Origin: a virus
Taxonomy: Duplodnaviria; Heunggongvirae; Uroviricota; Caudoviricetes
DNA: 64,000 nt
Strand: one strand, 5' to 3'
IMG/VR virus record: IMGVR_UViG_3300011339_000564
Location: 14,318 to 78,317 of that record
Under the pieces are notes generated by a model. The model worked only from the letters and a program-made list of their open reading frames with translations. It ran no database searches and was not told where the DNA came from. Position numbers and translations under genes: made by a program. Below, piece after piece: positions 24,994 to 59,041 of the stretch (position 1 is its first letter; each line of letters starts with the position of its first letter).

Positions 24994-25382
24994 TAGACTA
25001 TATACATGGTGGCGAGTATCTTAATGTTGTTAGTAACAAAGGTGCTCAGCCTTATATCAATATGAGTAGTACTCAGCCCATGATTGGTGCATTGTCTTAT
25101 GACCATAGTAGTCAACATATGAAAGTATATGATGGTAATGGGTGGATGACTATTGGCGGTGGCAGTGCTACTGTCAATCTAGCACCAAATGCTATCAATA
25201 TTTTAAAGTGGGCTGAACAGAAAATGCTAGAAGAAGCCGAGCGCAACAAATTAGCAGAAACAACCCCCGCTATTAGAGATTTGATGGACCAGATAAAAGA
25301 AAAAGAAGAACAGATAAAAATGGTCATGACTTTAATTAAAAGTACTGGTAATGATGCAATTAAACCCTCAATGGTACCCTAA
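24990..25382 (+). CDS. Hypothetical protein
   Basis: 130-aa ORF with ATGA/TAATG coupling on both sides. Confidence 0.55.
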   Translation: MIDYIHGGEYLNVVSNKGAQPYINMSSTQPMIGALSYDHSSQHMKVYDGNGWMTIGGGSATVNLAPNAINILKWAEQKMLEEAERNKLAETTPAIRDLMDQIKEKEEQIKMVMTLIKSTGNDAIKPSMVP

Positions 25383-26935
25383 TGGAACAAGATAATCTAT
25401 CAGCAAAACAAAACCCAGAGTGGGCATTGTTCTTACCCGCAGTTAGTAGTTTTTATATTAGTGGTTTGGGTAAGCAACGTAAAGGTGAGGAGTACTTTGA
25501 TAAGGCTCGTATCCCTACTCAGTTCAACGGTGATGTTGAGAAATTAAATTTCTTAAACAGTAGTGAAGGTCTCTATTATTATAAATGGGGCTTGTACAGT
25601 GCTGGTCACGCTAACTTAGATACTACTAAAGACGATGCTAGTGAATCAATCATTAGAGAACGTGAAGAAGGTACATTTATGTTGGGTGACAGTGGTGGAT
25701 TTCAGATTCTTAAAGGTCAATGGCCAGCAGACTGGAAAGATCCTAACTGCCCACGTGCTATGATTAAGCGTAAAGCTGTGTTGAATTGGATGGATACATA
25801 TATGGATTATGGTATGTGTTTAGATATCCCAAGTCAATCACTAACAACGTTTGGCATGAAAGATAAGAATGGTAATAGTCTGCATGGTATCAGTACTATT
25901 GAAGAAGCTATTACTGCCACTCACATTAACAACGAATACTTTATTAAGAATCGTAATGGGAAATGTAAGTTCTTAAATGTACTTCAAGGTCGTAATCATG
26001 GTCAGTCGGAAGACTGGTACAATGAAATGAAGAAGTACTGTGATCCAAACGTATATCCGGACAATCATTTCAATGGCTGGGCATTCGGTGGTCAGAACAA
26101 GATTGATGTACACTTGATGTTAACACGTATGGTTGATATTATCCATGATGGATTGTTGGTAGAAGGTAAACATGATTTGATTCATTGTTTGGGTACAAGT
26201 ATCTTAGAGTATGCGGTATTGTTTACTGATATTCAAAAAGCTATACGTAAATATCATAACTCAAAACTTCAGATTACATTTGACTGTGCTAGTCCATTTT
26301 ATAGTGCGGCTAAAGGATTAGCATATTTCAATACTAACATTGAGCATAATAAAAAATGGTCATACAGTATGGAAAAGACTGCTGAAAAGAAAAGTTATGC
26401 TAATGATACACGTAAATACCGTGATGCTGTGTTAGCAGAAGGCATCCATAAACTCTTTACAGATAGTCCAGTTACTGATAAACTACTACTTAAGGACATG
26501 TGTTATCGTGGTCAAGGGTTCATAGGACAACATGGTAAAGAAACTAAAACTAGTTGGGATACATTAAGTTACACATTGATTCAAAGTCATAATGTTTGGA
26601 TGCATATGAATGCAGTTCAAGAGGCTAATCGTCAATATGAAACAGGTATTACTCCTAAAATGCTTATTCATAAATTTGAAGGTAGTAAGTTTTTTGGTGA
26701 AATAGTTGATGAAATTTTCTCAAAGAAAACTAAACAAGAAGCTATTGACTTGATTGATTATCATCGTAGTTATTGGATGCAATTTCAATCAGGTAGTCAG
26801 GGTATTAGTGGTAAGCGTACAGTTAATGCTATGACAATGTTTGACCAATTATTTGAAGTAAATACAGATGAACCGGAAGTTGATGAAGTCATTGAGGACA
26901 GTGATGATGAAATTTTCAAAGTACTAGGAGAATAA
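25382..26935 (+). CDS. dpdA: TGT-superfamily transglycosylase, DpdA-like (DNA 7-deazaguanine insertion)
   Basis: GDSGGFQILKG and ITFDCASPF correspond to the two catalytic Asp motifs of tRNA-guanine transglycosylases (DSGGFQ, FDC). No CxCxxC zinc site was seen. 517 aa. Confidence 0.7.
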   Translation: MEQDNLSAKQNPEWALFLPAVSSFYISGLGKQRKGEEYFDKARIPTQFNGDVEKLNFLNSSEGLYYYKWGLYSAGHANLDTTKDDASESIIREREEGTFMLGDSGGFQILKGQWPADWKDPNCPRAMIKRKAVLNWMDTYMDYGMCLDIPSQSLTTFGMKDKNGNSLHGISTIEEAITATHINNEYFIKNRNGKCKFLNVLQGRNHGQSEDWYNEMKKYCDPNVYPDNHFNGWAFGGQNKIDVHLMLTRMVDIIHDGLLVEGKHDLIHCLGTSILEYAVLFTDIQKAIRKYHNSKLQITFDCASPFYSAAKGLAYFNTNIEHNKKWSYSMEKTAEKKSYANDTRKYRDAVLAEGIHKLFTDSPVTDKLLLKDMCYRGQGFIGQHGKETKTSWDTLSYTLIQSHNVWMHMNAVQEANRQYETGITPKMLIHKFEGSKFFGEIVDEIFSKKTKQEAIDLIDYHRSYWMQFQSGSQGISGKRTVNAMTMFDQLFEVNTDEPEVDEVIEDSDDEIFKVLGE

Positions 26936-35083: not shown

Positions 35084-35112
35084 TTTACAAATTCTGCTGC
35101 CTATGCTATAAT
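35084..35112 (+). promoter_or_regulatory. sigma70-type promoter TTTACA-17-TGcTATAAT
   Basis: TTTACA at 35084-35089 and TATAAT at 35107-35112 with an extended TG. AGGAG RBS before the ATG at 35130. Confidence 0.55.
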
Positions 35113-35129
35113 CAACATAGGAGAAATTC

Positions 35130-35612
35130 ATGGCAAACAAAAAATTCTTTTCAACAAAGACATACAGACAAATAGGTCCTGTCGCTTATCGTCAATGGCG
35201 TGCTGACAGTCATTGTAACTTAATTCATGGCTATGCTATGAGTTTTCACTTTGAGTTTGAGGCTGATACGTTAGACGCACGTAACTGGGTAACTGACTTC
35301 GGTGGATTACGACCTCTCAAAGATAAACTAGAAGAATGGTTTGACCATACATTACTAGTTGCACAAGATGACCCAATGCGTGAACATCTATTAGAACTAG
35401 GTCGTTTAAAGCTAGCTAAAATTACAGAAGTAGAACGTACTGGGTGTGAAGGTATTTCTGACTTTTTATATGAATACATTAACACAATTTTTTTGCCTAA
35501 CTGCGGTAGTGAAGAAGCTAAACGTGTATGGTGCTGTAGAGTAGAAGTCCGCGAGACTGATAGTAACATGGCAGGACGTAGTGGTCATAGGGAAGATAGA
35601 GAGTTTGAATAA
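35130..35612 (+). CDS. queD: 6-carboxy-5,6,7,8-tetrahydropterin synthase (QueD/PTPS family)
   Basis: HCNLIHGYAMSFHFEFE, DFGGLRPLKDKLEEWFDHTLL and the small T-fold size (160 aa). Confidence 0.7.
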   Translation: MANKKFFSTKTYRQIGPVAYRQWRADSHCNLIHGYAMSFHFEFEADTLDARNWVTDFGGLRPLKDKLEEWFDHTLLVAQDDPMREHLLELGRLKLAKITEVERTGCEGISDFLYEYINTIFLPNCGSEEAKRVWCCRVEVRETDSNMAGRSGHREDREFE

Positions 35613-36235
35613 TGTTAGAAACAATTTGCGATACATTAGTTGAAGCATATAAACGCAACTGGATTACCAGTCGTGATGGCAATGTAAGTATTCGTCATCA
35701 TGATCGGGATCATTTTTACATCACACCCAGTGGTGTGCGTAAGCAGACAATGCAACCGGATCAGTTTAAGAAGATTCGTATTGTTGGTAGTATGTTATGG
35801 GAAGAGCAACCATACACTGATATCAGTGCTAATCTTAAACCGTCAGGTGAGCTACCACTACACCTCGGACTACAGCGAAAAATGGGACAGCACAATAATG
35901 ATGTTAGAGTAGTAGTACATTTACATCCCACATACTGTGTTGCCGCTATGCACCGCGGCATTGAGTTGAGTAGTCTGGCTAATGACTTTCCTGAACTCAG
36001 TCGCTATACTAGCGTGGCACCCAATGTGGGTGATGTGCCTCCTATTAGCCAGGAACTTGCAGACCGCTGTCATGAAAATTTGGGACTAGATAAGAATGGT
36101 ACTATTGCTTATGACATTGTAGGTATCAAAGGTCACGGTGTGGTCGCTATAGATACTAGCCCATGGAGGGCTTTTGAACATATTGAACGATTAGAACATA
36201 TTTGTCAAATCGTATTAGCATCAGGGAAATATTAA
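35612..36235 (+). CDS. Class II aldolase/adducin-domain protein (epimerase/aldolase/dehydratase family)
   Basis: SRDGNVSIRH, YITPSGV, and VVVHLHPTY metal-binding His motifs. Confidence 0.7.
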   Translation: MLETICDTLVEAYKRNWITSRDGNVSIRHHDRDHFYITPSGVRKQTMQPDQFKKIRIVGSMLWEEQPYTDISANLKPSGELPLHLGLQRKMGQHNNDVRVVVHLHPTYCVAAMHRGIELSSLANDFPELSRYTSVAPNVGDVPPISQELADRCHENLGLDKNGTIAYDIVGIKGHGVVAIDTSPWRAFEHIERLEHICQIVLASGKY

Positions 36236-36236
36236 A

Positions 36237-36650
36237 ATGTTAGACTGTATAATTATAGGTGATAGCATTGCAGTTGGTACAGCTATGGCTCGTCCAGAGT
36301 GTGTAAGTTATTCAAAAGGCGGCTGGAACAGTTGGCAATGGAACAAGGATTACTTAGCCAAAGCCTCTGCTCAACCTGCTCAAACTATAATCATTAGTCT
36401 TGGAGCCAACGACCACAAGGGTGTTAAGACTGAGCTTGAGTTACGTAAAATGCGAGAAGCAGTTAAGGGCCAGCGTGTGTTTTGGATCGATCCAGGTCAA
36501 GACCGTAAACCTATTCCACACGATGCAATTATTCGCATTGCTAAAGAATATGGTGATACAGTATTGCCTAGGCCAAAGAATCATATGAGTGCTGACGGAG
36601 TACATCCAACTGGTCGAGGTTATAAGATTTTAGGAGAGATGGCAAAATGA
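36237..36650 (+). CDS. SGNH/GDSL-family hydrolase
   Basis: IIIGDSIAVG (block I, GDS), SLGANDH (block III) and DGVHP (block V). Confidence 0.6.
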   Translation: MLDCIIIGDSIAVGTAMARPECVSYSKGGWNSWQWNKDYLAKASAQPAQTIIISLGANDHKGVKTELELRKMREAVKGQRVFWIDPGQDRKPIPHDAIIRIAKEYGDTVLPRPKNHMSADGVHPTGRGYKILGEMAK

Positions 36651-37282
36651 GTTATATTGTAGGATCATTACCTCCTATTAAGTGTTGGATAAAACGTGAA
36701 TTTCTTTACAACTTTGAAAAAGGTCACGGAGAATTAGAACCTGCCATATGGGTAAGTCTTAAAGCATTACGTGGACAAGTGTTTCGTATTGAATCATTAT
36801 TACCCAATTACGGAGCACTCTACGATAAACTGCCCATTCATGCCTATGTATGGCAAGACAACTACACAGGCAATCTACCTATAGATACTTTACAACTCTG
36901 GGACTGCATGGGTTATCGCTTTACTATCATTGAAAAAATAGGTTTACGTAATCTAGGTGTTAAGTTCTTGGGCAAAGATAAAGAATGGCATCACGGAACT
37001 TATTTATTTACAGTAGATTTTTGTGCTGATGGAATGGATGTAGATACAGGTTTTACTGAAGTAGCAGAAGAACACAAGTCGTTTAATTTTATTAGATTAG
37101 AAAATGGACAGTTTGCTTGTCAACCCAATAATCGATGTTTGTGGTACGACCAAAGTTTGATTTCAGGTACAGTGAAATTTCCAGACTTTAAAGCCGCACA
37201 GACCATATTTACAGTAGATGGTACTCGCAAGTGGAGTGCAGGAGATGATTGGTTTTATTCTATTGAGGAAAAAAATGAATAG
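36647..37282 (+). CDS. Hypothetical protein
   Basis: 211-aa ORF with ATGA coupling. Confidence 0.55.
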   Translation: MSYIVGSLPPIKCWIKREFLYNFEKGHGELEPAIWVSLKALRGQVFRIESLLPNYGALYDKLPIHAYVWQDNYTGNLPIDTLQLWDCMGYRFTIIEKIGLRNLGVKFLGKDKEWHHGTYLFTVDFCADGMDVDTGFTEVAEEHKSFNFIRLENGQFACQPNNRCLWYDQSLISGTVKFPDFKAAQTIFTVDGTRKWSAGDDWFYSIEEKNE

Positions 37283-37466
37283 TTTAGAAAAAATATGGGC
37301 TAGAGCAACTGGTCATTTAATGGGTAACACTGATGATGATAGACCCGATGTACCTATTCTTACTTTACGAGAAGCAAGAATTGCATTGTTCCTAAAAACT
37401 TTCTGGATTATACTACATGTGATAACATGTTGTTTCATCATAGCAAATACATTACGTCATTGGTAA
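37275..37466 (+). CDS. Small membrane protein
   Basis: Start at the ATG at 37275. C-terminal TM segment FLKTFWIILHVITCCFIIANTL. Confidence 0.45.
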   Translation: MNSLEKIWARATGHLMGNTDDDRPDVPILTLREARIALFLKTFWIILHVITCCFIIANTLRHW

Positions 37467-37469
37467 AAT

Positions 37470-37667
37470 ATGAACAAAAAAATTACAGAACTATGGGAAC
37501 AGGCCGCTCAACGAGATGACTTACTAGACGAAAAACGGTATGAGCATTTTGCTGAATTATTAATTAGAGATTGTGCAAAACAAGTTAATCATCTGGCTAA
37601 ACAAGGTGGCGGAACTTGGGGCGAAGTCATTCTAGAAAACTACAATATAAGTGTATATAAAAAATGA
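37470..37667 (+). CDS. Member of the small 'FAELIVREC' paralog family
   Basis: MNKKITELWEQAA...HFAELLIRDCAKQV. Divergent C-terminus. Confidence 0.55.
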   Translation: MNKKITELWEQAAQRDDLLDEKRYEHFAELLIRDCAKQVNHLAKQGGGTWGEVILENYNISVYKK

Positions 37668-38512
37668 GTCATTTAAAAGTATCAGAATTATTTTACAGTA
37701 TCCAGGGAGAAGGTCGCTATATGGGAGTGCCAAGTATTTTCCTAAGAACATATGGATGCAATTTTACATGCGGTGGCTTCGGTATGCCTAAGGGAGAAAT
37801 GAGTAATGAGAGAGATGTTATCGCAATTAAAGCAGAAGATTATACAGATTATAAATCCTTACCACTTGTCAGTACTGGATGTGATAGTTACGCATCTTGG
37901 GACCCTCGCTTTAAACATCTTAGTCCTGTTATCTCTACCGATTCTATTGCTGACAGTATTATGGATATACTTCCTCACAAGCGTTGGATGGATGAACATC
38001 TTGTTATTACAGGTGGTGAACCTTTGCTTGGATGGCAAAGAGCGTATCCAGACTTACTTTCAAACGAGAAAATGAGAGCATTGAAAGAGATTACATTTGA
38101 AACTAATGGCACACAAGAACTAAGTAAAGACCTTACTAACTATCTTCATCAATGGAAGATCAGCCGTGAAAATAACGCACTTACATTCAGTGTGAGTCCT
38201 AAACTTAGTATCAGCGGTGAGAAGTGGGAAGAAGCAATATGTCCACAAGTTGTTCGTCAATATGAAAGTGTTGGCTTTGTATATCTTAAATTTGTTATTG
38301 CTACTAAAGAAGATGCGATTGAGGCAGATAAAGCAGTTAAAGAATTTCGTACAGCTGGATTCAGAGGTCCAATATACTTCATGCCATGCGGTGGTGTAGA
38401 AAGTATCTATAATTTAAATGCTAGAAATGTTGCTATTGAAGCAATGAATCGTGGCTATCGCTATAGTGATAGATTACAGGTGCCTCTATTTAAAAATGAA
38501 TGGGGGACATAA
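37664..38512 (+). CDS. queE: 7-carboxy-7-deazaguanine synthase (QueE, radical SAM) with atypical Cys spacing
   Basis: ELFYSIQGEGRYMGVPSIFLRTYGCNFTC is the QueE N-terminal signature. The third Cys of CxxxCxxC is missing locally, and the next Cys (GCDSYASWDP) lies 36 residues later. VITGGEPLL. Confidence 0.75.
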   Translation: MSHLKVSELFYSIQGEGRYMGVPSIFLRTYGCNFTCGGFGMPKGEMSNERDVIAIKAEDYTDYKSLPLVSTGCDSYASWDPRFKHLSPVISTDSIADSIMDILPHKRWMDEHLVITGGEPLLGWQRAYPDLLSNEKMRALKEITFETNGTQELSKDLTNYLHQWKISRENNALTFSVSPKLSISGEKWEEAICPQVVRQYESVGFVYLKFVIATKEDAIEADKAVKEFRTAGFRGPIYFMPCGGVESIYNLNARNVAIEAMNRGYRYSDRLQVPLFKNEWGT

Positions 38513-38945: not shown

Positions 38946-39125
38946 ATGTATGAATTAAGATATCTTGTCCGAAACGGTTGGGATGGACCTGAACAAGTGT
39001 TACAATATAGAACTCAACATGAAGTAACAGACTATAGTGGCACAGATCCTAAAACAGGTGGATTCATTAGAAAAATAGAATGGACTGAATGGAAGTATGT
39101 CCCCACCGTAGATGAAACAAAATGA
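38946..39125 (+). CDS. Small hypothetical protein (59 aa, below the track cutoff)
   Basis: MYELRYLVRNGWDGPEQVLQYRTQHE... The stop overlaps the ATG at 39122 (ATGA). Confidence 0.45.
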   Translation: MYELRYLVRNGWDGPEQVLQYRTQHEVTDYSGTDPKTGGFIRKIEWTEWKYVPTVDETK

Positions 39126-40471
39126 AATTATACGATAAACGAATTGCTTTTTTGATTAGTGACCAACATTTTATACCGCATGGTGGTATAGGTAGTTTTG
39201 CTAAAGGCTTTACTGAGATGTGTGGTCGTATCGGGTGGAAGGTTGATATTATATTAGACAAAGCACCTACTAATTTATTCAGTGATTTAATTATTAGTCT
39301 AGGTGCTAACATTGTTTACCCTGATGAACCACTACGATACAGTGACCATACTGCTACGTTTGCATTTAGCGATACTATCAACTTTGAAAAGATTATCAAC
39401 TTCCGTAAAGCAATATTAAAAGCATTTGAAACAAATGTATACGACATGATTGTGTGTAATACACAAGAGGCAATGACTGCTAGTTATGCCATGACGGTTA
39501 ACAAGTATATACCTGTTGTATTCTATACTCATTTGCACAGTATGATTTTTCGTGAAAGTCAAGGTAGTGATGTATTTTTAGACAGCTATCACAATTTCTA
39601 TAACAAACATATGGAGTTTACTGATATCATTATAGGCACACAAAGTCAAAAGAACATTGACGAACTAACTAAGTTTGGTGCAACTAACTGTCAGTTATTG
39701 CGTATGCCAATGAGTGAACGTGGTCTATTAGAACGATACAATGGATCTAAGAAGGGTGTACTATTCATTGGACGATGGGAAGAAGGTAAGAACCCTGAAG
39801 CATATATTCGTGTAATGAAAGAATGTAAATTACCATGTAAGGTAATGACAAATAGTAACGGTGCAAAAAAGTTTGAGAAGGCATTCAGTGACGCAGGTAT
39901 TACTGATTATGAAATCAAAGCCGGTATTACTGGACAAGAGAAAGTAGATTTTGTTCGTGGTGCTAATGTATTCTTTATGCCCAGCCTTCGTGAAAACTAT
40001 CCATTTGCATTTTTAGAATGTCTTGGTCATATGCCTTGTGTTGTGCTTGATAATCAAGATTGGTCAGACAACTTTGAGCGAGAATACTATCATCAAGTTT
40101 CAATTGGTTCAGCAGCCGACATGATTAAAACATTGTATGGCACAAATCAATTATCTTCAGTATTAGACTATGTGAAACAATTAGATGATGAGGTAGCTCA
40201 AGGTTGGATTACATTCTTAGATAATTTTGCAGGCAAGCGTAGCAACACAAATGCCGCAAAGATTAATACATATGATACAGTTAAGTATAGTGATTATATC
40301 AAGGATTTAAATCGTACACATTTAGCACGTGAGGACTTTGAAAGCGTACTCGCAAACAAATATAAGTTTTTAAATGTCTGCTACACAGATAGTGACACTT
40401 ACCTAAGCAAAGACCCAACATATAAACCAGTCGAGGAAGAAACAGCATTAAGTCTGTTTGAAGGATTATGA
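39122..40471 (+). CDS. GT-B (GT4-like) glycosyltransferase
   Basis: HGGIGSFAKG N-terminal motif, FIGRWEEGKNP, and RENYPFAFLECLGHMPCVV (the E-x7-E region). Confidence 0.7.
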   Translation: MKLYDKRIAFLISDQHFIPHGGIGSFAKGFTEMCGRIGWKVDIILDKAPTNLFSDLIISLGANIVYPDEPLRYSDHTATFAFSDTINFEKIINFRKAILKAFETNVYDMIVCNTQEAMTASYAMTVNKYIPVVFYTHLHSMIFRESQGSDVFLDSYHNFYNKHMEFTDIIIGTQSQKNIDELTKFGATNCQLLRMPMSERGLLERYNGSKKGVLFIGRWEEGKNPEAYIRVMKECKLPCKVMTNSNGAKKFEKAFSDAGITDYEIKAGITGQEKVDFVRGANVFFMPSLRENYPFAFLECLGHMPCVVLDNQDWSDNFEREYYHQVSIGSAADMIKTLYGTNQLSSVLDYVKQLDDEVAQGWITFLDNFAGKRSNTNAAKINTYDTVKYSDYIKDLNRTHLAREDFESVLANKYKFLNVCYTDSDTYLSKDPTYKPVEEETALSLFEGL

Positions 40472-41298
40472 AAAAAGTTTTAATTACAGGTAACTCAGGT
40501 TACATTGGCAGTCATCTAAGTAAGATGTTAATGGATACAATGAAATATGAAGTTCATGGATTAGATATCCGTGACCCGCAATATGCATTGAATAGATTTT
40601 ATCGTCAAGATATCAATAGACAATTTTCATTAGATGAAGAATTTGATGCAGTCATTCACTTAGCCGCATTAGTTAATGTAGGTGAAAGTGAACAGATACC
40701 CATTCAATATTATATCACTAACTTAAATGGCACAATGAATGTCATTAACAAAGTAAAGACTAAAAACTTTATATTTGCAAGTACGGGTGCCGCAGTTGGT
40801 TGCGAAAGTGCTTATGGTATCAGTAAACGTGCCGCAGAAGATGTAGTCAAAGAATACTGCACACATCACAATAAAAAAGATTATACTATCTTTAGATTTT
40901 ATAATGTGATTGGTACTACCGTTGTTCCACCTACAAATCCAGATGGATTAATGTATAACTTAATGAAAGCACGTGAAACAGGTGAGTTTACTATCTTCGG
41001 TAATGACTATGACGTTAGTGATGACGGTACATGTGTGCGTGATTATGTACATGTGAATGAAATTTGTGACTCATTAGCACAGGCTATCGAAAAGCCTAGT
41101 AACCAAATTGAATCATTGGGTCACGGAGTGGGATGGACAGTTAAAGAGATTGTCGATGAGTTTCAAAAAGTCAATCACGTTGACTTTGAAGTAAAATACG
41201 GCCCAAGAAGAAAGGGTGATCTTGCTAGTTCTGTACTAGAAGATGTTTCACCCTATATGCGTAATCTATATACTATGGATGAGTTGCTTAAGGTTTAA
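40468..41298 (+). CDS. NAD-dependent sugar epimerase/dehydratase (GalE-like SDR)
   Basis: VLITGNSGYIGSHL Rossmann motif and the YGISKRAAE catalytic YxxxK. Confidence 0.8.
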   Translation: MKKVLITGNSGYIGSHLSKMLMDTMKYEVHGLDIRDPQYALNRFYRQDINRQFSLDEEFDAVIHLAALVNVGESEQIPIQYYITNLNGTMNVINKVKTKNFIFASTGAAVGCESAYGISKRAAEDVVKEYCTHHNKKDYTIFRFYNVIGTTVVPPTNPDGLMYNLMKARETGEFTIFGNDYDVSDDGTCVRDYVHVNEICDSLAQAIEKPSNQIESLGHGVGWTVKEIVDEFQKVNHVDFEVKYGPRRKGDLASSVLEDVSPYMRNLYTMDELLKV

Positions 41299-42444: not shown

Positions 42445-42623
42445 TTCTTGCGACCCCTAAACCCTACTGGCATCTGCAAATCATTAACGGGAAACATTGC
42501 TTTGAACCACTCATCAGTACCAGGCTTAGCAGTAATTTTGCTACGGTCTATAGGCACAGAAGATGTAGGTTTTCCTCTATGGTCGGTAACTCCTGCAAGT
42601 CTTTTAAGTTGATCTATGTTCAT
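42441..42623 (-). CDS. Small hypothetical protein
   Basis: 60 aa, MNIDQLKRLAGV..., overlap-coupled within the minus-strand operon. Confidence 0.5.
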   Translation of the reverse strand: MNIDQLKRLAGVTDHRGKPTSSVPIDRSKITAKPGTDEWFKAMFPVNDLQMPVGFRGRKK

Positions 42624-43174
42624 AGACTCTTACCCCAGCGTGTGTTAATCACATTCCAGTTGATAATCTTCCACTGTTCAGCCAAATACTTTTTCTTATC
42701 AGCACCGTAGTCTAATATCCACGCATGTTCCCACCAATCAACTAATAACAATATATCATTGCGTACTTCATGGTTCTTAATTGTTTTAATTTTACCATCA
42801 GTTGCTAAATATACCCACCCACTACCTTGTATCTTCATTGCTTCAGTTTCAAACTGTGACTTCATATTATCGTATGAGCCAAAATGTTTGTTAATAAAGC
42901 CCATCATGGGGCCGTTTGGATTGTTTTTATTTCTTACTTCACGGAACTGAGGGAACAATGTATTATGTAAGAATGCACCTGCATAGTTAAATTCTTTATC
43001 TCCGATATCTTTGTTATATCTTTCAGCATAGCCATGTGCTAACTTGCCATAGTGTAAGTCTATAGTGTCTACCGACAAAACCGGACTTAGTTCTTTTGGC
43101 TCAAAATTAAGCTGAATGATTTCTATATCTTGAGGTTTTGACTTATCCTCAAGTAACTGAATTAAATCACGCAT
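42620..43174 (-). CDS. sodB: Fe/Mn superoxide dismutase
   Basis: DTIDLHYGKLAHGY, FLHNTLF, FGSYDNMKSQF, GSGWVYL, LLLVDWWEHAWILDY and INWNVI align with SodB blocks. All four metal ligands are present. Confidence 0.8.
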   Translation of the reverse strand: MRDLIQLLEDKSKPQDIEIIQLNFEPKELSPVLSVDTIDLHYGKLAHGYAERYNKDIGDKEFNYAGAFLHNTLFPQFREVRNKNNPNGPMMGFINKHFGSYDNMKSQFETEAMKIQGSGWVYLATDGKIKTIKNHEVRNDILLLVDWWEHAWILDYGADKKKYLAEQWKIINWNVINTRWGKSL

Positions 43175-45662: not shown

Positions 45663-45691
45663 TTGACTTTATTGCGTAGTTGTGCTACACT
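45663..45691 (+). promoter_or_regulatory. sigma70-type promoter TTGACT-17-TGcTACACT
   Basis: TTGACT at 45663-45668 and TACACT at 45686-45691 with an extended TG. This argues that the uvdE-like gene starts at the ATG at 45721 rather than at 45682. Confidence 0.5.
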
Positions 45692-45699
45692 GTATATAT

Positions 45700-45708
45700 T
45701 ATTTATCA
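45700..45708 (-). promoter_or_regulatory. TGATAAATA motif on the minus strand (candidate late promoter for the 45644-41300 operon)
   Basis: TATTTATCA on the + strand, 56 nt upstream of the minus-strand ATG at 45644. Confidence 0.3.
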
Positions 45709-45720
45709 CTTTGGGCTTTT

Positions 45721-46749
45721 ATGTACACAAATCAATCAGTCAAACGTATCGGCTTTGCTTGCAAATGGGCAGAAATCAACAAGAAAGGTGAAATTGCTTC
45801 AGCCGAAGGTCTTAACACTGGCGGCACAACTCATGCTTGGGCAAAGCGTAATAGTCGTAATGTAGTAGAAGAAAAGATTATGGATGTTGCAAAACGCAAT
45901 ATTATGAATACACATGCACTAGTTAAACGTGTCGCTACACTAGAACCACAATTACGTATGTTGCGTCTTACTAGCGATATGCTGAGTTTTTACACACTAG
46001 ATGAATATAAAGGCTTTTGGCAAAGTAGTGATGTACAAAACAGCTTGGCTCGATGGTTTGCCCCGATCGGGGAAACAGCACGTGCCAATGATGTTCGTCT
46101 TAGTTTTCACCCTGACCAGTTTGTAGTTTTAGCAAGCGACCGTGAAGAAGTAGTAAATAAGAGTATTGAAGAATTTGAATATCATTGTGACATGGTTCGT
46201 TGGATGGGCTATGGCAAAGAGTTTCAAGACTTCAAAGTAAATGTACATATCTCGGGACGTAAAGGCCCACAAGGCATCAGGGATGTGTACAACAGATTGT
46301 CGCCAGAAGCGAGAAACACACTAACACTAGAGAATGAGGAATACACACATGGACTTACTGACTGCTTATCATTATCTGACCTCGTACCTACGGTCATGGA
46401 CATACATCACAATTGGATTCGTGAGGGAGAATATATTTCCCCCAATGATGACAACGTTAAAAAGGTTATTGATAGTTGGCGCGGTATTAGGCCTACTTTA
46501 CATTACTCCGTCAGCCGTGAAGATGTACTTGTCGGGCATTCCGGATCACAGTTACCCGATCATGGTGCGTTGATTGAATCTGGATACAGTAAGCAAAAAC
46601 TTCGGGCACATAGTGATTACTATTGGAACGAAGCTGTGAACGATTGGGCATTGACATTCATTGATAAATTTGATATGATGTGTGAATCGAAGGCAAAGAA
46701 TCTTGCCAGCTTTAAATTATTAGAGAGATATAAATGTTTGACAAAATAA
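45721..46749 (+). CDS. uvdE: UV damage endonuclease (UvdE family)
   Basis: RIGFACKW, LRLTSDMLSFYT, RLSFHPDQFVVLAS, TLENEE, MDIHHNW and LHYSVSRE match the UvdE TIM-barrel motif series. Confidence 0.7.
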   Translation: MYTNQSVKRIGFACKWAEINKKGEIASAEGLNTGGTTHAWAKRNSRNVVEEKIMDVAKRNIMNTHALVKRVATLEPQLRMLRLTSDMLSFYTLDEYKGFWQSSDVQNSLARWFAPIGETARANDVRLSFHPDQFVVLASDREEVVNKSIEEFEYHCDMVRWMGYGKEFQDFKVNVHISGRKGPQGIRDVYNRLSPEARNTLTLENEEYTHGLTDCLSLSDLVPTVMDIHHNWIREGEYISPNDDNVKKVIDSWRGIRPTLHYSVSREDVLVGHSGSQLPDHGALIESGYSKQKLRAHSDYYWNEAVNDWALTFIDKFDMMCESKAKNLASFKLLERYKCLTK

Positions 46750-47165
46750 AAAACTTATTTAAAAAGCCAGAACCTGTAAAGCCTGTACAGCAAAAGAAAC
46801 CACGACAGCCTAAAAAGAAGAAGGAAGATACACCTCTTTCAGAAAAAGAAAAAGCTACAATGGAAGGCATGCCCTATGTTAATATTCTTAAAATGGAACT
46901 AGATCCATACGATATTAATACAGGTGCATTTGAATTAGATTGGAACGATAAGTTTGTATTGAACTTAATCAAATCTGGATTTAAGATTCGTGAGGATGAT
47001 ACTGATACAATGATTGTTGAACGTTGGTTTCAAACAGTATGCCGCAATGTCGCACTAGAACTCTATGAACAGCAACAAGCTGATCCAGAGAATCGTACAA
47101 TGGCTAGTGAAATGCGTGTGGTCCGTGCTAAAGATTTGGGCGATGGCCGTACTGAGGTAAGCTAA
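46734..47165 (+). CDS. Hypothetical protein with a Lys/Pro-rich N-terminus
   Basis: 143-aa ORF overlapping the uvdE-like 3' end. Confidence 0.5.
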   Translation: MFDKIKNLFKKPEPVKPVQQKKPRQPKKKKEDTPLSEKEKATMEGMPYVNILKMELDPYDINTGAFELDWNDKFVLNLIKSGFKIREDDTDTMIVERWFQTVCRNVALELYEQQQADPENRTMASEMRVVRAKDLGDGRTEVS

Positions 47166-47191
47166 TTTACCCAAAATCTTAACGAATAAAG

Positions 47192-47220
47192 TTGACATAT
47201 ATTCCATTTAACTGTATAAT
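47192..47220 (+). promoter_or_regulatory. sigma70-type promoter TTGACA-17-TGtTATAAT
   Basis: TTGACA at 47192-47197 and TATAAT at 47215-47220. Confidence 0.6.
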
Positions 47221-47255
47221 ACTATTTCTTTCAACAACTCTTAAGGGGTAAACAA

Positions 47256-48440
47256 ATGGCTTATTTCTATAAATGGAAAAACAATAGTCAAAAACGCAAA
47301 CTTGTCCCAATCGACAATAAACTCAAACGTGAGAAGAATACCTTTAAGGTTAAGGATGTTGTTGGATTAGCAAAAGAATTGAATGATCCTTCCAATACAG
47401 GATGGCATGACAACATTGCACACTATACTGCAAACAATATTTATTTTGAACTTAACAAGCGTCCTAAGCATGACCAAATTGAATTGCGTCTGTTACTTAG
47501 TGACGAGGACATTCAACGGTTGTTAGATGGTGGACACTGTGCTGACATTTCGGCCCCGGGAGTATTTGATGAGCGCAGACTTAATCCCATTTTTGCTGTA
47601 AAATTACCTAACGAAGATTATTTTCACGTTACTGATGGCCAACACACTCTTGCAGTTATTGCTGGATTAGCACTAGCAGGTAGATTGAAACTTAATGGTA
47701 AAATCATTGAGTCAAAAGATTGGTTGAGCGTTAAGGTTGATGTGATGTATGTAGAAAGTGATAGCCTAAGTTTTGCACGTAAACACTTCCTATATATCAA
47801 TGGTGAAGGTAAGAAACCAATTGAAGAATATGATACTCATGCAGTTAATACATTATGTGTTCGTTTAGATAGTGATACTGATCCAGATTCTCTCAAAGCA
47901 GAAGAATTGCAGGCTATTGCAGAAGAATATGGTATTACTACATTACCTAAAAATCATTCTCAATCAGAAGAACCAAACGCAGTAACTCACATTAGTGGTA
48001 TGAATAAGATGACTGCTGAGGCATGGCGCTTCTTATGTGCAAATCACGCAAAATATTGGTCAAGCGAGAAAGTTGACAATGCTGAATTTGGTTTGTTTGG
48101 TGGACTGTATGAACATTGTACTAAAACTAAATCTGGAATACGTACTGATACTAAAGCATTCACTGAATTTCTCCGTGATTTTAATGCTACAGTAAAAGAA
48201 GTTTTTGTAAATCCAAATGGATTAAAGGAAGCTACTACTGAAGCATATAAAAAGTATTCACTGCAAACAGTTAAGTATGAAAAAAGTCCTGATAAAACAG
48301 TTGCATTGGCAATCGTACTAAAGATTTACAAAAAAGCAGGTGGCACACATATTGTTCCCGGAGTTATTATGGCTCACGCACAAGATGGGTACGATGTTAC
48401 TGATTTTCTTTCTGATGAAATTAAGGCAAAGTTACCATGA
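47256..48440 (+). CDS. DGQH(R)-motif ParB-like domain protein (DndB/DpdB/DUF262-like)
   Basis: YFHVTDGQHTLAVIAGLALAG resembles the DGQHR (DndB, DpdB) and DGQQR (DUF262) motifs. 394 aa. Confidence 0.45.
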   Translation: MAYFYKWKNNSQKRKLVPIDNKLKREKNTFKVKDVVGLAKELNDPSNTGWHDNIAHYTANNIYFELNKRPKHDQIELRLLLSDEDIQRLLDGGHCADISAPGVFDERRLNPIFAVKLPNEDYFHVTDGQHTLAVIAGLALAGRLKLNGKIIESKDWLSVKVDVMYVESDSLSFARKHFLYINGEGKKPIEEYDTHAVNTLCVRLDSDTDPDSLKAEELQAIAEEYGITTLPKNHSQSEEPNAVTHISGMNKMTAEAWRFLCANHAKYWSSEKVDNAEFGLFGGLYEHCTKTKSGIRTDTKAFTEFLRDFNATVKEVFVNPNGLKEATTEAYKKYSLQTVKYEKSPDKTVALAIVLKIYKKAGGTHIVPGVIMAHAQDGYDVTDFLSDEIKAKLP

Positions 48441-48859
48441 AATGGTTCTATGTTATTAAAACAAGTCACAATGACACACTAGGATTTGGAATTACTATTC
48501 ATTTGTCTAAACGATTAGTTGATGGTTATTGTAATCCTAGTGCGGCAAAACAACAATTTTCAAAATTGTATTATGGAGAAAATCTCCATATCAATCAATT
48601 AGAAAAATATATCAAACAGGTATATAGTAATAAACGATTAAACTTTACTAACACACGTACCCGTAAATTAGAATGGATAGATCCAAAATATGACATTTCA
48701 ATTGAGGATTTGATTGATACTGTTGAGGATCGTATTTTGGGCTACCCATTACCTATCAAACGTATCAGGGATAAATTCTTACCATACACCCTTGATAATC
48801 CGGATATCTTTAAAACAATCAATGAGAATCCTGATTTGTTTTTGGAACAACTCGGTTGA
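48437..48859 (+). CDS. Hypothetical protein (weak GIY-YIG-like N-terminus)
   Basis: WFYVIKTSHNDTLGFGITIHLSKRL is loosely similar to GIY...YIGxT...R. Not decisive. Confidence 0.3.
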   Translation: MKWFYVIKTSHNDTLGFGITIHLSKRLVDGYCNPSAAKQQFSKLYYGENLHINQLEKYIKQVYSNKRLNFTNTRTRKLEWIDPKYDISIEDLIDTVEDRILGYPLPIKRIRDKFLPYTLDNPDIFKTINENPDLFLEQLG

Positions 48860-48884
48860 CAACATCTAAATAGTAGTATATAAT
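48856..48884 (+). promoter_or_regulatory. sigma70-type promoter TTGACA-17-TATAAT; leaderless transcript predicted
   Basis: The -35 at 48856-48861 contains the upstream stop TGA (48857-48859). The -10 is at 48879-48884 and the ATG at 48891 follows 6 nt later. Confidence 0.6.
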
Positions 48885-48890
48885 AGACAC

Positions 48891-49889
48891 ATGAAATACG
48901 CACTCATTGACACAGCAAATACATTCTTCCGTGCCCGTCACATTGCATCACGTAATAGTGATACATGGGAAAAGATCGGCATGGCCCTACACTTGACATT
49001 GGCAAGTACTAATCAAATTGTTCGCAAGTTTGGTGTGGATCACGTTGTGTTTTGTTTAGAGGGTCGTAGCTGGCGCAAAAGTTTCTACGAGCCATACAAG
49101 AAAAATCGCATTGTTGATACACTATCACAAACAGAAGCCGAGATTGAAGAAAATAAAATGTTCTGGGAGACGTATGAAGTATTTACAAATTTTTTACGTG
49201 AGAAAACTAATGTTAGTGTCCTTCGTCATGCTGAGGCTGAGGCTGATGACTTAATTGCACGTTTCATTCACTTGCATCCCGATGATGAACATTTTATTAT
49301 CAGTAGCGATAGCGACTATGTGCAATTGATTACCGAAAATGTAAAACAATATAATGGGGTAGCTAATCAACTGATTACGTTAGATGGTTACTTTGATGAC
49401 AAGGGTAAGATTGTCAAAGATAAGAAAACTAAAGAACCCAAGCTACTAGAAGATCCACAATATTTGCTATTTAAAAAATGTATGCGGGGTGATGGTACTG
49501 ACAATGTGTTTAGTGCTTATCCTGGTGTGCGTGAGAAAGGTAGCAAGAATAAAGTTGGCTTGATGGAAGCATATGCTGATAGAGAAAAACAGGGCTACCA
49601 GTGGAACAATCTACTACTTCAACGCTGGCTAGACCATAATGGAGTAGAACATCGTGTACGTGAGGATTATGAACGTAATCGTATACTAATTGATTTGACT
49701 GCACAACCTCAGGATATCAAAGACAAGGTTGATGCTAGTATCATTGAGGGTGTTCGTACAACTACTACCCCTCAAGTTGGTATTCACTTTATGCGATTCT
49801 GTGGCAAATATGAGTTGACTAAGATTAGTGAACAAGCAGAAACATATGCGAAATGGTTGAATAGTCCTTACATGGGAAGTTTAGTATGA
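48891..49889 (+). CDS. 5'-3' exonuclease / flap endonuclease (T4 RNase H-like)
   Basis: LIDTANTFFRARH, AEAEADDLIA, ISSDSDYVQL, and an H3TH-like GDGTDNV. Confidence 0.8.
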   Translation: MKYALIDTANTFFRARHIASRNSDTWEKIGMALHLTLASTNQIVRKFGVDHVVFCLEGRSWRKSFYEPYKKNRIVDTLSQTEAEIEENKMFWETYEVFTNFLREKTNVSVLRHAEAEADDLIARFIHLHPDDEHFIISSDSDYVQLITENVKQYNGVANQLITLDGYFDDKGKIVKDKKTKEPKLLEDPQYLLFKKCMRGDGTDNVFSAYPGVREKGSKNKVGLMEAYADREKQGYQWNNLLLQRWLDHNGVEHRVREDYERNRILIDLTAQPQDIKDKVDASIIEGVRTTTTPQVGIHFMRFCGKYELTKISEQAETYAKWLNSPYMGSLV

Positions 49890-56153: not shown

Positions 56154-57455
56154 ATGAAAAAATTTATACTCATACTATCTATTGTTCTATCCGGTTGTGG
56201 GGGCGGTGGTGGCACCAGTACTGGCGATAGTTCGCAGGCAGTATCAGTAAAATCAACGTGTACCCTTGCTGTAAATTCAAATACAGTTCCACAATCATAT
56301 TATGGCACTAATTCAATACCCACACCATTATCAAAATTTGATAATACTATTCTAAGAGGTATTGGTCTTAAAGATTATCATCCTAGATTTAATCTGGCAA
56401 ATACAAATTGCACTCAAGATGAACATTCCAGATTACTATATCAAAAAACACTAGACAGATTAAAACTATTAAACGTAGATTATGTTGAAGTATATCAATA
56501 TGGCCCGGTAGTTGATTTTAATGCTACTACTTGGGTAGTAGATAAATCTACATGGCAAATACCAGAAAGTGAATTGATCTGGTTTATTAAAGAGGCTAAT
56601 AGTAGAAACATTAAAGTAAATATTATTTGGCAATTATGGCCAACTGATAGTAAAGGTAATACTATAAATTCAAGTTATGATATGTCAGAAGCGGAAATGT
56701 TAAAAGTATTGCGGGGATGGCATAATATTATTGTAGATTTAGCTAAGTTTGGTGGTAGTAATGGTTTGAATATATTAACCGTACATTGGAATGCATTTCA
56801 TTTTCCAGTAACTAACAAATATAAAGAATCTGCCACCTTAGAATTTTTATCAATCATTAATGATGTGCGACAACATTTTAATGGTAAATTATTTATGGGA
56901 GCATCGCCTGTATTTTTTGATAAGAGAATTGTTGAAAAGGTCGATGGTATTATTATTCCATTAACTCCTAGTAATTGGTCTAGAAATGATGATATTAATA
57001 TATCTGTCAGTTTGTTAAAAAGCCGATATTTAGATAATATATTAGGAAAAGCATTAGAACTTTCTATGGCTACTGGATTAGATTTAAAAAGTATTCCGGT
57101 TATCTGGGATTTTAATATTCAGAGCAGAGATAAAGCATTGAGTGAAGGTTGGGTAGAAGATGGATTTTGTATTAAAGAAGGTGGCGATGGTGCCCCTGTA
57201 AGTTGGGGTAATCCTGAATGTGCCAAACAAATGAATTATATAACCGATTTTAGTATTCAAGCATTAGCTATTGAAGGTGCATTTCAGGCTATTAAAGAAC
57301 AAACATTAATTAAAACATATGGTATTAACTTTAGTACTAGTTATTGGCATACTGATACGTTAGTACCCGGGCAAGAAGGCTTTCCCAACTTGTCGCAATC
57401 TATTCGAGGAAAACCTGCTGAGAATGTAGTCAAACATTGGTTCTCCAAAAATTGA
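56154..57455 (+). CDS. Lipoprotein, possible TIM-barrel glycoside hydrolase-like
   Basis: Lipobox LSGC followed by a GGGGG linker. 433 aa. The enzymatic assignment is not supported by a clear motif. Confidence 0.6.
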   Translation: MKKFILILSIVLSGCGGGGGTSTGDSSQAVSVKSTCTLAVNSNTVPQSYYGTNSIPTPLSKFDNTILRGIGLKDYHPRFNLANTNCTQDEHSRLLYQKTLDRLKLLNVDYVEVYQYGPVVDFNATTWVVDKSTWQIPESELIWFIKEANSRNIKVNIIWQLWPTDSKGNTINSSYDMSEAEMLKVLRGWHNIIVDLAKFGGSNGLNILTVHWNAFHFPVTNKYKESATLEFLSIINDVRQHFNGKLFMGASPVFFDKRIVEKVDGIIIPLTPSNWSRNDDINISVSLLKSRYLDNILGKALELSMATGLDLKSIPVIWDFNIQSRDKALSEGWVEDGFCIKEGGDGAPVSWGNPECAKQMNYITDFSIQALAIEGAFQAIKEQTLIKTYGINFSTSYWHTDTLVPGQEGFPNLSQSIRGKPAENVVKHWFSKN

Positions 57456-57480
57456 CAATAAATGGGTATTGTGCTATAAT
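57452..57480 (+). promoter_or_regulatory. sigma70-type promoter TTGACA-17-TGcTATAAT
   Basis: The -35 at 57452-57457 contains the upstream stop TGA (57453-57455). The -10 is at 57475-57480. Confidence 0.6.
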
Positions 57481-57512
57481 AGAATCTTAAACAGTAAAGA
57501 AAAGGAAACGAA

Positions 57513-57785
57513 ATGTCAGCACTCACAGAATACACATTGGAAATTTACAAAACTGACAAGCGTACCAAAGAAGGTAAGCGTTTGGTTTCAAAGCAAGATT
57601 TTGCACCAGTAACAGTAGACTACATTAATGCCGTTGCAGACGGTAAGCGTAGGTTGGGTTTTGTTGTTGAAGTGTTCGAAACCTTTGTTACCCGCAAAAA
57701 CTTGATGGCAGGTAAGTCATTCCAAGAACGTTATGACACCCCTTACTTTTGTTCACCAAGTTCCGAATCTTACTGGTCAATGTAA
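57513..57785 (+). CDS. Hypothetical small protein (early-gene cassette 1)
   Basis: 90-aa ORF with an AAGGAAA RBS. Confidence 0.6.
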   Translation: MSALTEYTLEIYKTDKRTKEGKRLVSKQDFAPVTVDYINAVADGKRRLGFVVEVFETFVTRKNLMAGKSFQERYDTPYFCSPSSESYWSM

Positions 57786-57788
57786 AGG

Positions 57789-57817
57789 TTGACAGTAATT
57801 GGATTTGGGTATATAAT
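57789..57817 (+). promoter_or_regulatory. sigma70-type promoter TTGACA-17-TATAAT
   Basis: TTGACA at 57789-57794 and TATAAT at 57812-57817. Confidence 0.6.
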
Positions 57818-57848
57818 ACTTGTATTGACTTGATTAAAGGACTACAAA

Positions 57849-58115
57849 ATGGCTAAGAAAATCTCTATCAAAGTGTTTGCAGACCCCGGACATGCTTGGG
57901 CACGTTTTCCCAAAGCAAAATTGGTCAGTCTCGGTATTGCTGACAAAATTAGTACTTATAGTTACATGAATGGTTCCAATGCATTCTTGGAAGAGGACTG
58001 TGATTTGTCTGTATTGCTGGTTGCTCTCCGTAATCGTGGCTATGAGATTAAATTTAACGAAAGTCACACAAACCGTCAAAGCAAAATCCGCAATTATTTT
58101 ACCTACAAGGCTTGA
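57849..58115 (+). CDS. Hypothetical small protein (early-gene cassette 2)
   Basis: 88-aa ORF. Confidence 0.6.
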   Translation: MAKKISIKVFADPGHAWARFPKAKLVSLGIADKISTYSYMNGSNAFLEEDCDLSVLLVALRNRGYEIKFNESHTNRQSKIRNYFTYKA

Positions 58116-58140
58116 CAATAAATCACTTTGGGTATATAAT
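58112..58140 (+). promoter_or_regulatory. sigma70-type promoter TTGACA-17-TATAAT
   Basis: The -35 at 58112-58117 contains the upstream stop TGA (58113-58115). The -10 is at 58135-58140. Confidence 0.6.
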
Positions 58141-58387: not shown

Positions 58388-59041
58388 ATGGCTCGCTATC
58401 AAAAACCCGTTCTCAATATCCCTGCTGAAAACGTCTGGGGTGCGGCATGTCAGGCACAACGCATTAACGGTGCCTATGTTAAACTGAGTGTGTTGACAGA
58501 GGCTGACAAGACAGAGAACAAATTGTCCAATCGTCAACTGGTCGAAAGTTTCATGGTTGACCCTAGCTTGATTACCGAAGAAGATATGGAGCAAGGTAAA
58601 AAAGTTCGTGCATTTTATCAGGCATTCACTTTCAAAATCTTGCAAGGCAAACGATTGAATGAATTTGACAACACCGCAATGTTGCTTGCCAATCGTGATG
58701 TTATTACTGGTAGTTATGATGTTGCGGTTATTGCTAGTTTGCCAAGTTGCTATGAGCGTGGTATGAAACGTCAAACAGCAGACCAACGTGTTAATTTTGC
58801 TAGCGGTGGATTTGTGGGTTCAGTTGGTGATAAAGTTTCAACTACTATTGAAGTATTGAAATCTGTATTCTCAATGAAATGGGGCACACACTATGTTACC
58901 GGCATCACTAGTGATGACCAAGTAGTGTTCTTTGCTTACAAAAGTGAATTACCAATTGGTAAGATATATGATATTTATGGTACTGTTAAAGCACACCGAG
59001 ATAACACTACCCAACTTAATCGTGTAAAGGTTATTGTATGA
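58388..59041 (+). CDS. Hypothetical protein
   Basis: 217-aa ORF with a GGAG RBS. Confidence 0.6.
   Translation: MARYQKPVLNIPAENVWGAACQAQRINGAYVKLSVLTEADKTENKLSNRQLVESFMVDPSLITEEDMEQGKKVRAFYQAFTFKILQGKRLNEFDNTAMLLANRDVITGSYDVAVIASLPSCYERGMKRQTADQRVNFASGGFVGSVGDKVSTTIEVLKSVFSMKWGTHYVTGITSDDQVVFFAYKSELPIGKIYDIYGTVKAHRDNTTQLNRVKVIV

Follow-up and report, generated by a model that had tools for sequence, protein, structure and literature searches.

Nucleotide switches built on the ParB fold are emerging well beyond chromosome segregation. In the type IV restriction systems GmrS/GmrD, single-chain GmrSD, BrxU and SspE, a ParB-like nucleoside triphosphatase (NTPase) of the DUF262 family is combined with a His-Me nuclease of the DUF1524 family. 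The DGQQR box of GmrS is predicted to bind nucleoside triphosphates (NTPs) (PMC4619093). The DGQHR domain is defined by a QR pair, the DGQHR pentapeptide and an FxxxN motif (PMC4619093), and ParB domains of the COG1479/DGQHR type tend to join nucleases (PMC3632139). According to a preprint survey, DndB-like and DUF6551 ParB folds bind ATP, GTP or CTP in vitro, and ParB folds of phages join methyltransferases (bioRxiv 10.1101/2025.10.10.680097). The subject of this paper is a two-gene locus of a similar kind in a phage. It lies in a stretch of 64,000 nucleotides (nt), hereafter the window, which covers positions 14,318 to 78,317 of the IMG/VR record IMGVR_UViG_3300011339_000564 (Caudoviricetes). 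The first gene encodes a 394-amino-acid (aa) protein of the ParB/sulfiredoxin (ParB/Srx) fold with a DGQHT motif (47256..48440, + strand), and the second encodes a 140-aa protein consisting of a GIY-YIG (MUG113/T5orf172-like) domain and a C-terminal tail of ~40 aa (48437..48859, + strand). The proposal made here, with a probability of about 0.5, is that the pair is a single mobile cassette for a DNA endonuclease of two subunits and serves conflict. The cassette is best described as a variant of the “ParB/DGQHR domain plus nuclease” theme that is encoded by a phage, carries a DGQHT box and a GIY-YIG nuclease, and shows homing-type behaviour.

The GmrSD-type systems share several properties with this locus. 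In both cases, a small nuclease is coupled to a ParB/Srx domain that carries the QR pair, the DGQ[QH] box and the FxxxN motif, and both are accessory and linked to conflict. The original GmrS and GmrD are separate proteins (PMC4619093), and the cassette is likewise split. However, the motif in the cassette is DGQHT, not DGQQR, and there is no match to the DUF262 profile. The nuclease is of the GIY-YIG type and not a DUF1524/HNH enzyme, although a distant branch of the family (P0101) is paired with an HNH nuclease. Moreover, the cassette is found in a virulent-looking giant phage rather than in a bacterial defence island. GmrSD, BrxU and SspE are bacterial weapons against modified phage DNA; here, a phage would use the same logic, with the two parts on separate proteins and a nuclease of the GIY-YIG type.

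The two open reading frames (ORFs) can be regarded as a self-contained unit, because the 140-aa gene ends within another perfect promoter (48856-48884), which overlaps its stop codon and stands in front of the next gene. The ParB-like gene has its own promoter of the form TTGACA-17 nt-TATAAT (47192..47220, + strand; 12 of 12 consensus positions), and a Shine-Dalgarno sequence AAGGGG, read from the sequence, lies 7 nt 5' of its ATG (47243..47248, + strand). Its stop codon overlaps the start of the 140-aa ORF as ATGA. A preliminary description of this DNA had reported a 394-aa ORF with a DGQH motif, a consensus promoter in front of it and ATGA coupling to a 140-aa ORF. All three are confirmed: the motif is present as DGQHT at nt 47634-47648, the promoter is perfect, and the overlap can be read directly from the sequence. 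Eight perfect TTGACA-N17-TATAAT sites were found in the window, all on the + strand, against 0.06 expected from shuffles, so the promoter at 47192-47220 is not a chance match and is credibly part of a genome-wide pattern.

The pairing of the two genes is strict. A GIY-YIG homologue was found directly 3' of the ParB-like gene, overlapping or abutting it, in 45 of 45 loci of the first scan, which had been fetched by means of the ParB-like protein and in which the identity of this protein falls from 91% to 24%. The partner hidden Markov model (HMM) matched in these loci with E-values from 1e-25 to 1e-70. When the ParB-like sequences are grouped at 60% identity or more, 13 of 14 clusters have a recognisable partner, and in the remaining one (L102) a divergent candidate of 147 aa ends in the same C-terminal tail; L104 likewise has a divergent candidate partner. 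The GIY-YIG partner also stands beside the distant members P0024 and P0050. Inside the genomic slot described below, neither gene was seen without the other. In other, more distant members, the abutting gene encodes an HNH nuclease (P0101) or an SPPY-motif methyltransferase (P0140), which corresponds to the known habit of the superfamily with regard to nucleases (PMC3632139) and methyltransferases (bioRxiv 10.1101/2025.10.10.680097). The abutting genes of P0076 and P0120 encode unknown proteins, as is the case for gp558 of Sinorhizobium phage Phosso. The literature searched for a ParB-like/GIY-YIG or ParB-like/T5orf172 pairing contained no described system.

These observations bear on one alternative explanation of the locus, namely that two independent genes, one for an orphan DNA-binding protein with a ParB fold and one for a free-standing GIY-YIG homing endonuclease, ended up in the same transcription unit by chance. 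Orphan ParB folds are common in phages (bioRxiv 10.1101/2025.10.10.680097), and free-standing homing endonucleases occupy the same slot in related phages. Nevertheless, chance adjacency would hardly persist across all 45 loci and 13 of 14 clusters, between 91% and 24% identity and at different genomic positions, nor would it be expected to leave neither gene alone inside the slot and divergent candidate partners in L102 and L104. For these reasons, the explanation is very improbable. A further protein deserves mention in connection with the pair. The 217-aa protein encoded at 58388..59041, which has no PDB sequence match, has homologues just 3' of the pair in several distant loci (L019 at ~12424, L031/L033 at ~13031, L043 at 7905, L044 at 5310 and L045 at 8237). 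It was considered as a third component and rejected, since it lies 9.5 kb from the pair in the window and has no PDB match.

The genomic setting of the pair is a hypervariable slot between two conserved genes. A search anchored on FEN, the 5'-3' exonuclease encoded downstream of the pair, yielded 80 IMG/VR loci in which FEN is 80–97% identical to that of the window, and both flanks, i.e., the gene for a 143-aa protein and FEN, are present in 72 of the 80. Both flanks are context and lie outside the cassette. The left one (46734..47165, + strand; PHROG 13349, E 7e-8) shows 57–94% identity across the FEN-anchored related loci that were compared, irrespective of the slot content, and the right one (48891..49889, + strand) matches Pfam 5_3_exonuc_N with E 9.5e-18. 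The slot holds the ParB-like/GIY-YIG pair in 22 of the 72 loci (14 non-duplicate loci) and other cargo in 33 (18 non-duplicate loci). It is empty, with 40–59 bp between the flanks, in the remaining 17 (7 non-duplicate loci), these relatives being known from partial genomes that may carry a copy of the pair elsewhere. Such a presence/absence polymorphism at one site between conserved genes is expected of a free-standing homing endonuclease. The other cargo includes HNH proteins of 129–145 aa, an HNH-NUMOD3 homing-type endonuclease, a 603-aa ResIII helicase-HNH fusion, an N6_N4 DNA methylase with small neighbours, which resembles a restriction-modification set, and recurrent 195-aa and 263-aa proteins of unknown family. 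Loci listed for such cargo are L048 (2290-3729), L086-L093, L094 (1238-3835), L101/L106 and L107.

The sequences of the pair vary widely within this slot. L047 has flanks with 92% and 97% identity to those of the window, but its ParB-like protein is only 22% and its nuclease 46% identical; the same pattern of conserved flanks and a divergent pair is seen in L051 and L056. Alleles down to 22% identity in near-identical phages are the pattern expected under conflict-driven diversification. In L005, the pair is 85–91% identical to that of the window and exceeds the flanks (59–84%), and L001 shows the reverse, with 43–45% for the pair and 62–84% for the flanks. Of the two subunits, the ParB-like one is the more divergent. 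The pair is also placed differently relative to FEN in L019, L035 and L041, and it is found in contigs that otherwise have almost nothing in common with the window (L021-24). The cassette is a mobile accessory unit that is swapped for other nucleases or absent in close relatives.

The boundaries of the cassette can be read from the empty sites. Where the slot is empty in L074, a lone promoter, TTGACAACATTTAAATAGTAGTATATAAT, comes after the stop codon of the flanking gene; AGACAC and the ATG of FEN come next, and the junction reads ...GTAAGCTAATAAGTTGACAACATTTAAATAGTAGTATATAATAGACACATG. This promoter is almost identical to that at 48856..48884 of the window (+ strand; 12 of 12 consensus positions), the resident FEN promoter, which overlaps the stop codon of the GIY-YIG gene and marks the right boundary. 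The cassette thus spans the interval from the stop codon of the 143-aa gene to the FEN promoter and brings its own promoter with it; the slot cargo in L051, L101 and L124 also brings a promoter-like site. Since GTTGACA stands at both ends of the cassette (47191-47197 and 48855-48861), an empty site would arise again if the two -35 boxes were exchanged, and exchange of promoter boxes may therefore be the mechanism of its mobility. Promoter cassettes known as PeSL are reported to shuffle accessory genes in T4-type phages (PMC2839356, PMC4122927). The likeness consists in accessory genes placed between early promoters, some with a promoter of their own, and in a -35 exchange that would recreate the empty site. 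The difference is that the boundaries here share only the 7-bp GTTGACA and that no associated stem-loop is seen. The cassette is slightly richer in AT than its flanks, with a GC content at third codon positions of 0.24–0.26 versus 0.29–0.34. A foreign base composition was considered and dropped, because this difference is only slight. The resident promoter has a peculiarity of its own: its -10 box ends 6 nt before the ATG of FEN and there is no Shine-Dalgarno sequence (48879-48893; also in L074, L048 and L051), which suggests that the mRNA of the 5'-3' exonuclease is leaderless.

Within the ParB/Srx superfamily, the 394-aa protein is remotely related to the DGQHR/DndB branch and represents a variant with Thr (“DGQHT”). 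Its approximate layout comprises a variable N-terminus (aa 1-67), the ParB/Srx domain (aa 68-190) and an all-helical C-terminal region (aa 191-394). The central motif lies in YFHVTDGQHTLAVIAGLALAG (aa 122-142), where D127-G-Q-H-T131 has Thr in place of the Arg of DGQHR (47634..47648, + strand). It is preceded by the QR pair Q87-R88 (47514..47519, + strand), which belongs to the definition of the DGQHR domain (PMC4619093) and is equivalent to ParB box I, and followed by F178-x-x-x-N182, the FxxxN motif (47787..47801, + strand), and then by G183-x-G185-K186. Counts of motifs and profile matches refer to 113 family members, which were scanned individually. Q87 is conserved in 107 and R88 in all 113, D127 in 89, G128 and Q129 in 100 each, H130 in 106, F178 in 97 and N182 in 105. 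At position 131, 98 members have Thr and only 5 have Arg. The window protein does not have the exact DGQHR pentapeptide but keeps four of its five residues. The five residues from D127 to T131 are invariant among 11 close homologues. Within the family, the ParB domain is the best conserved part, with a mean pairwise identity of 34%, compared with 22–27% for the rest of the protein.

The relationship to the DGQHR/DndB families is remote and transitive, because relatives match their profiles and the protein of the window does not. TIGR03187 (DGQHR) is matched by 16 of the 113 members (best E 5.4e-6), DUF6551 (PF20188) by 6 (best E 8.5e-5) and DndB (PF14072) by a single one (E 3.4e-3). None of the 113 matches DUF262 or ParBc, and the DndB and DpdB equivalog models are absent from the families matched at E<=0.05 by any of them. 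The label “DndB/DpdB/DUF262-like” given in the preliminary description is thus retained in part. Its core stands, given the ParB/Srx fold and the triad of QR, DGQH and FxxxN, and its DUF262 and DpdB components are not supported. A lack of significant profile matches to DGQHR or DUF262 families had been named there as one result that would refute it. Profile searches gave no match for the window protein itself; since relatives give weak matches to TIGR03187, DUF6551 and DndB, the relationship is remote rather than absent. Another suggestion made there, an unrelated ParB-fold protein, is too weak a description in view of the same triad.

Structural comparison leads in the same direction. The predicted model of the 394-aa protein has the ParB/Srx fold, and a Foldseek search against viral models (BFVD) returned uncharacterised phage and cyanophage proteins together with entries named “sulfur modification protein”, “DNA-sulfur modification-associated protein”, “ParB/Sulfiredoxin” and “GmrSD N-terminal domain”. 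The motif triad, the weak profile matches of relatives and these sulfur-modification entries are what the family has in common with DndB and other DGQHR proteins (TIGR03187/PF14072). The differences are that the window protein lacks a profile match, that the Arg of the pentapeptide is Thr, that no dndCDE-type genes were found among the ORFs scanned and that the HEPN-like motif Rx4-6H is not conserved in the C-terminal region. The idea that this region is a HEPN-like domain, as DndB has, was considered and dropped, since neither a conserved polar motif nor Rx4-6H could be recognised in it. DUF6551 is linked to the family by the six matching members and includes phage ParB folds that bound ATP or CTP in vitro (bioRxiv 10.1101/2025.10.10.680097); here too, the window protein itself does not match the model. 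A keyword search of that survey found no mention of a GIY-YIG partner for DUF6551. A canonical ParB is not indicated either. Neither a GERRxRA box nor a helix-turn-helix (HTH) motif nor a parA neighbour was found, there are no ParBc, HTH or ParA matches, and the equivalent of box II is DGQHT.

A word-indexed protein search with the 394-aa protein gave 11 clusters, and an exhaustive profile search gave 220 representatives at E<=1e-3, mostly of 370–460 aa. PDB sequence and profile searches returned noise only, and GTDB genomes scanned with patterns of the family contained no relative. Cultured phages have almost no members of the DGQHT family. No GenBank phage matched the region in a Megablast search, tblastn of the distant members P0030, P0072, P0101 and P0140 gave none, and tblastn of the 394-aa protein gave a single weak match, in Sinorhizobium phage Phosso. 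The window and its relatives belong to giant, uncultured phages, as related contigs reach 357–364 kb. The Phosso protein, gp557 (323 aa, annotated as hypothetical; PV764938.1, locus L128, 394992-396771), matches the family HMM with E 1.6e-28 and carries the motifs YQRE, TDGQHT and FVAIN. It is the only clear member found in a cultured phage, and its other cultured relatives amount to two weak matches. Its abutting neighbour, the 268-aa gp558, is not a recognisable partner.

The second protein of the pair has the GIY-YIG fold. The downstream ORF had been noted for a weak GIY-YIG-like N-terminus, and this assignment holds. The score with Pfam MUG113, 22.2 bits, lies just below the cut-off of 22.3, and the best structural matches are SLX1 and HIGLE. 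The GIY-YIG and T5orf172 models match the 140-aa protein more weakly than MUG113. Among 16 relatives of the protein, MUG113 is matched by 11 (best E 1.7e-5), GIY-YIG by 7 and T5orf172 by 1. Across 20 divergent partners, the conserved residues are Y5, G16-F-G18, R26, Y31, E56, K60 and E79-W80, of which Y5, R26, E56 and E79 may occupy the positions of the catalytic Tyr, Arg and Glu. The protein consists of a bare catalytic domain and a tail with the pattern FLPF...P..FLE; no DNA-binding module (NUMOD, zinc finger or HTH) could be recognised in it. It shares the GIY-YIG catalytic fold with SLX1-SLX4, the Seg homing endonucleases of T4 and endonuclease II, and the presence/absence polymorphism between conserved genes with phage homing endonucleases. 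It differs from the SLX1 and T4 enzymes in that it has no NUMOD, zinc-finger or HTH extension and in that its obligate neighbour is ParB-like.

The structural matches raise the question of whether the pair is an accessory of repair or recombination, in which an SLX1-like structure-specific nuclease works with a ParB-like clamp or loader beside UvdE, FEN and ligase. SLX1 needs the partner SLX4, which would fit a two-protein arrangement, and the neighbours of the pair are indeed UvdE and the 5'-3' exonuclease, with a DNA ligase 12 kb downstream. The behaviour of the slot argues otherwise. The pair is absent in many close relatives and replaced by homing-type HNH genes or a methylase, its alleles are 22–46% identical where the flanks are 92–97% identical, which is not the pattern of a housekeeping function, and it is also found away from UvdE and FEN (L019, L021-24). 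A role in repair is consequently improbable.

The presence of a DGQH protein in this phage also invites a connection with 7-deazaguanine DNA modification. DpdB is the ParB-like ATPase partner of bacterial DpdA. By analogy, the 394-aa protein could be an NTPase partner for a DpdA-like transglycosylase that inserts 7-deazaguanine. The window encodes FolE, QueD and QueE (within 33145-38512) and a DpdA-like protein, the DGQH motif and the ParB/Srx fold are as in DndB and DpdB, and in relatives the pair is often 6–10 kb from QueE. The dpdA-like candidate (517 aa; 25382..26935) is recognised by the motifs DSGGFQ and FDCASP only, which resemble the two catalytic-Asp motifs of tRNA-guanine transglycosylases (TGT); Pfam, PHROG, PDB sequence and PDB profile searches gave no support for this ORF. 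The protein is probably a very divergent enzyme of the DpdA/TGT family. As had been stated at the outset, the ParB-like gene is far from dpdA: the only dpdA-like candidate lies 20.3 kb upstream, and the ParB-like gene has its own promoter and does not share an operon with it.

The ParB-like gene is neither linked to nor co-distributed with dpdA. Empty-slot relatives, which are known from partial genomes, keep QueD (96–99% identical) and QueE (84–90% identical), and one of them, the L074 contig (61,782 bp), also keeps FolE (90%) and the dpdA-like gene, recognised by an exact 36-nt match across the DSGGFQ codons. The two genes also differ in conservation. The dpdA-like gene is a strongly conserved core gene and extremely abundant in metagenomes: its protein has more than 6600 clusters at E<=1e-3, the best 120 of which are all at least 81% identical, versus 11 clusters in a search of the same kind and alleles down to 22% in the same background for the ParB-like protein. 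The constant neighbour is the nuclease and not dpdA, and a DpdB equivalog is lacking among the profile matches of the family. What remains common to the cassette and DpdB is a DGQH-type ParB-like protein in a genome with DpdA-like and preQ0-pathway genes. Because the empty-slot relatives keep QueD and QueE, in one case with FolE and the dpdA-like gene, and because the fixed partner is a nuclease, the role of a DpdB-like accessory, which the preliminary description had listed first, is highly unlikely, and the co-occurrence check it had suggested gives no sign of co-distribution. The presence of dpdA in a phage does not by itself make its DGQH protein a DpdB, and an attractive but wrong inference is thereby corrected.

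With these alternatives weighed, the two-subunit endonuclease can be outlined as follows. The 140-aa protein would be the GIY-YIG catalytic subunit, which cuts DNA and has no DNA-binding domain of its own. The 394-aa DGQHT protein would be the partner that binds DNA and probably NTP and that directs or gates the cutting, and the two would form a complex. The logic would be that of GmrS/GmrD-type and other ParB-like-plus-nuclease conflict systems. The cassette would be expressed from its own promoter, of the host sigma-70 type, and its job would be to cut the DNA of co-infecting relatives or of the host and/or to home into cassette-less genomes. We infer complex formation, NTP binding, nuclease activity and the target from sequence, models and context. 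We likewise infer that the role of the cassette is neither housekeeping nor that of a DpdA helper. A nuclease formed together with the downstream ORF was one of three readings offered earlier, and it is the best supported of the three, by the strict pairing and the context.

Several observations weigh against a two-subunit nuclease. The 394-aa protein has no Pfam or NCBIfam match at E<=1 and no PHROG match, and the PADLOC models of defence proteins gave nothing relevant for the 113 family members. Its AlphaFold2 model is of moderate quality (predicted local distance difference test score of 74) and was built on an alignment of 11 sequences. Since the Arg of DGQHR is Thr and several slot alleles have a degraded motif (DTMHG, NAQHT, DSMHT and EGNHT, with His kept in all those listed), NTP binding may be altered or lost. 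In the 140-aa protein, the second signature Tyr of GIY-YIG is Phe (G-F-G), which leaves some doubt about its catalytic competence. A partner is not strictly required for a protein of this kind, since T4 endonuclease II, a GIY-YIG enzyme of about the same size, works alone. Finally, strict pairing would also fit a regulator with its enzyme or an inhibitor with its toxin.

The last point corresponds to a distinct explanation, namely a toxin-antidote or autoregulated selfish pair, in which a ParB-like repressor or inhibitor restrains a toxic GIY-YIG nuclease and enforces retention of the cassette rather than targeting. The literature describes DndB as a regulator (repressor) of dnd operon transcription (PMC4507180; bioRxiv 10.1101/2025.10.10.680097), the two genes are strictly and translationally coupled, and the cassette behaves as a mobile element. 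However, the order of regulator and then nuclease with a stop/start overlap fits a stoichiometric complex at least equally well, and the pairing with an HNH nuclease or a methyltransferase in distant relatives resembles a shared sensor or targeting module. This explanation is rather unlikely, and the targeted two-subunit nuclease is preferred. A more specific version of the latter is offered tentatively. The DGQHT nucleotide switch may give a fast-evolving target or modification specificity to the GIY-YIG subunit, and the cassette, moving between promoter-bounded slots, may decide co-infection by exclusion or homing among giant phages that probably have 7-deazaguanine DNA, possibly because it can distinguish the modified DNA of its own phage from DNA that lacks the modification. 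If the ParB-like subunit does set specificity, its alleles would form a natural library of programmable or modification-sensitive nucleases and would give a handle on phage-phage competition in uncultured giant phages.

Some features of the window complete the picture. The eight perfect promoters, all on the + strand, start at 445, 24192, 47192, 48856, 55110, 57452, 57789 and 58112, and three of them are spaced ~330 bp apart at 57452-58140. The genes of the que region lie at 28360-29133, 33145-33825, 35130-36235, 37664-38512 and 39122-41298, and no QueC was recognised alongside FolE, QueD and QueE in the window. Interleaved with these three are genes for a cytidylyltransferase/mannose-6-phosphate-isomerase-like protein, a class II aldolase, a glycosyltransferase and an NAD-dependent epimerase. 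This arrangement hints at a further, possibly sugar-bearing, hypermodification of the DNA. The window also carries host-like auxiliary genes at 858-3919, 16758-17747, 31071-31760, 42620-43174 (- strand), 62875-63672 and 45682-46749. They encode a DnaJ-like protein, a ClpB-type AAA+ chaperone, a TctC-type binding protein, a Bax-inhibitor-1 membrane protein, an Fe/Mn superoxide dismutase, an SPFH/Band-7 protein and the UV endonuclease UvdE.

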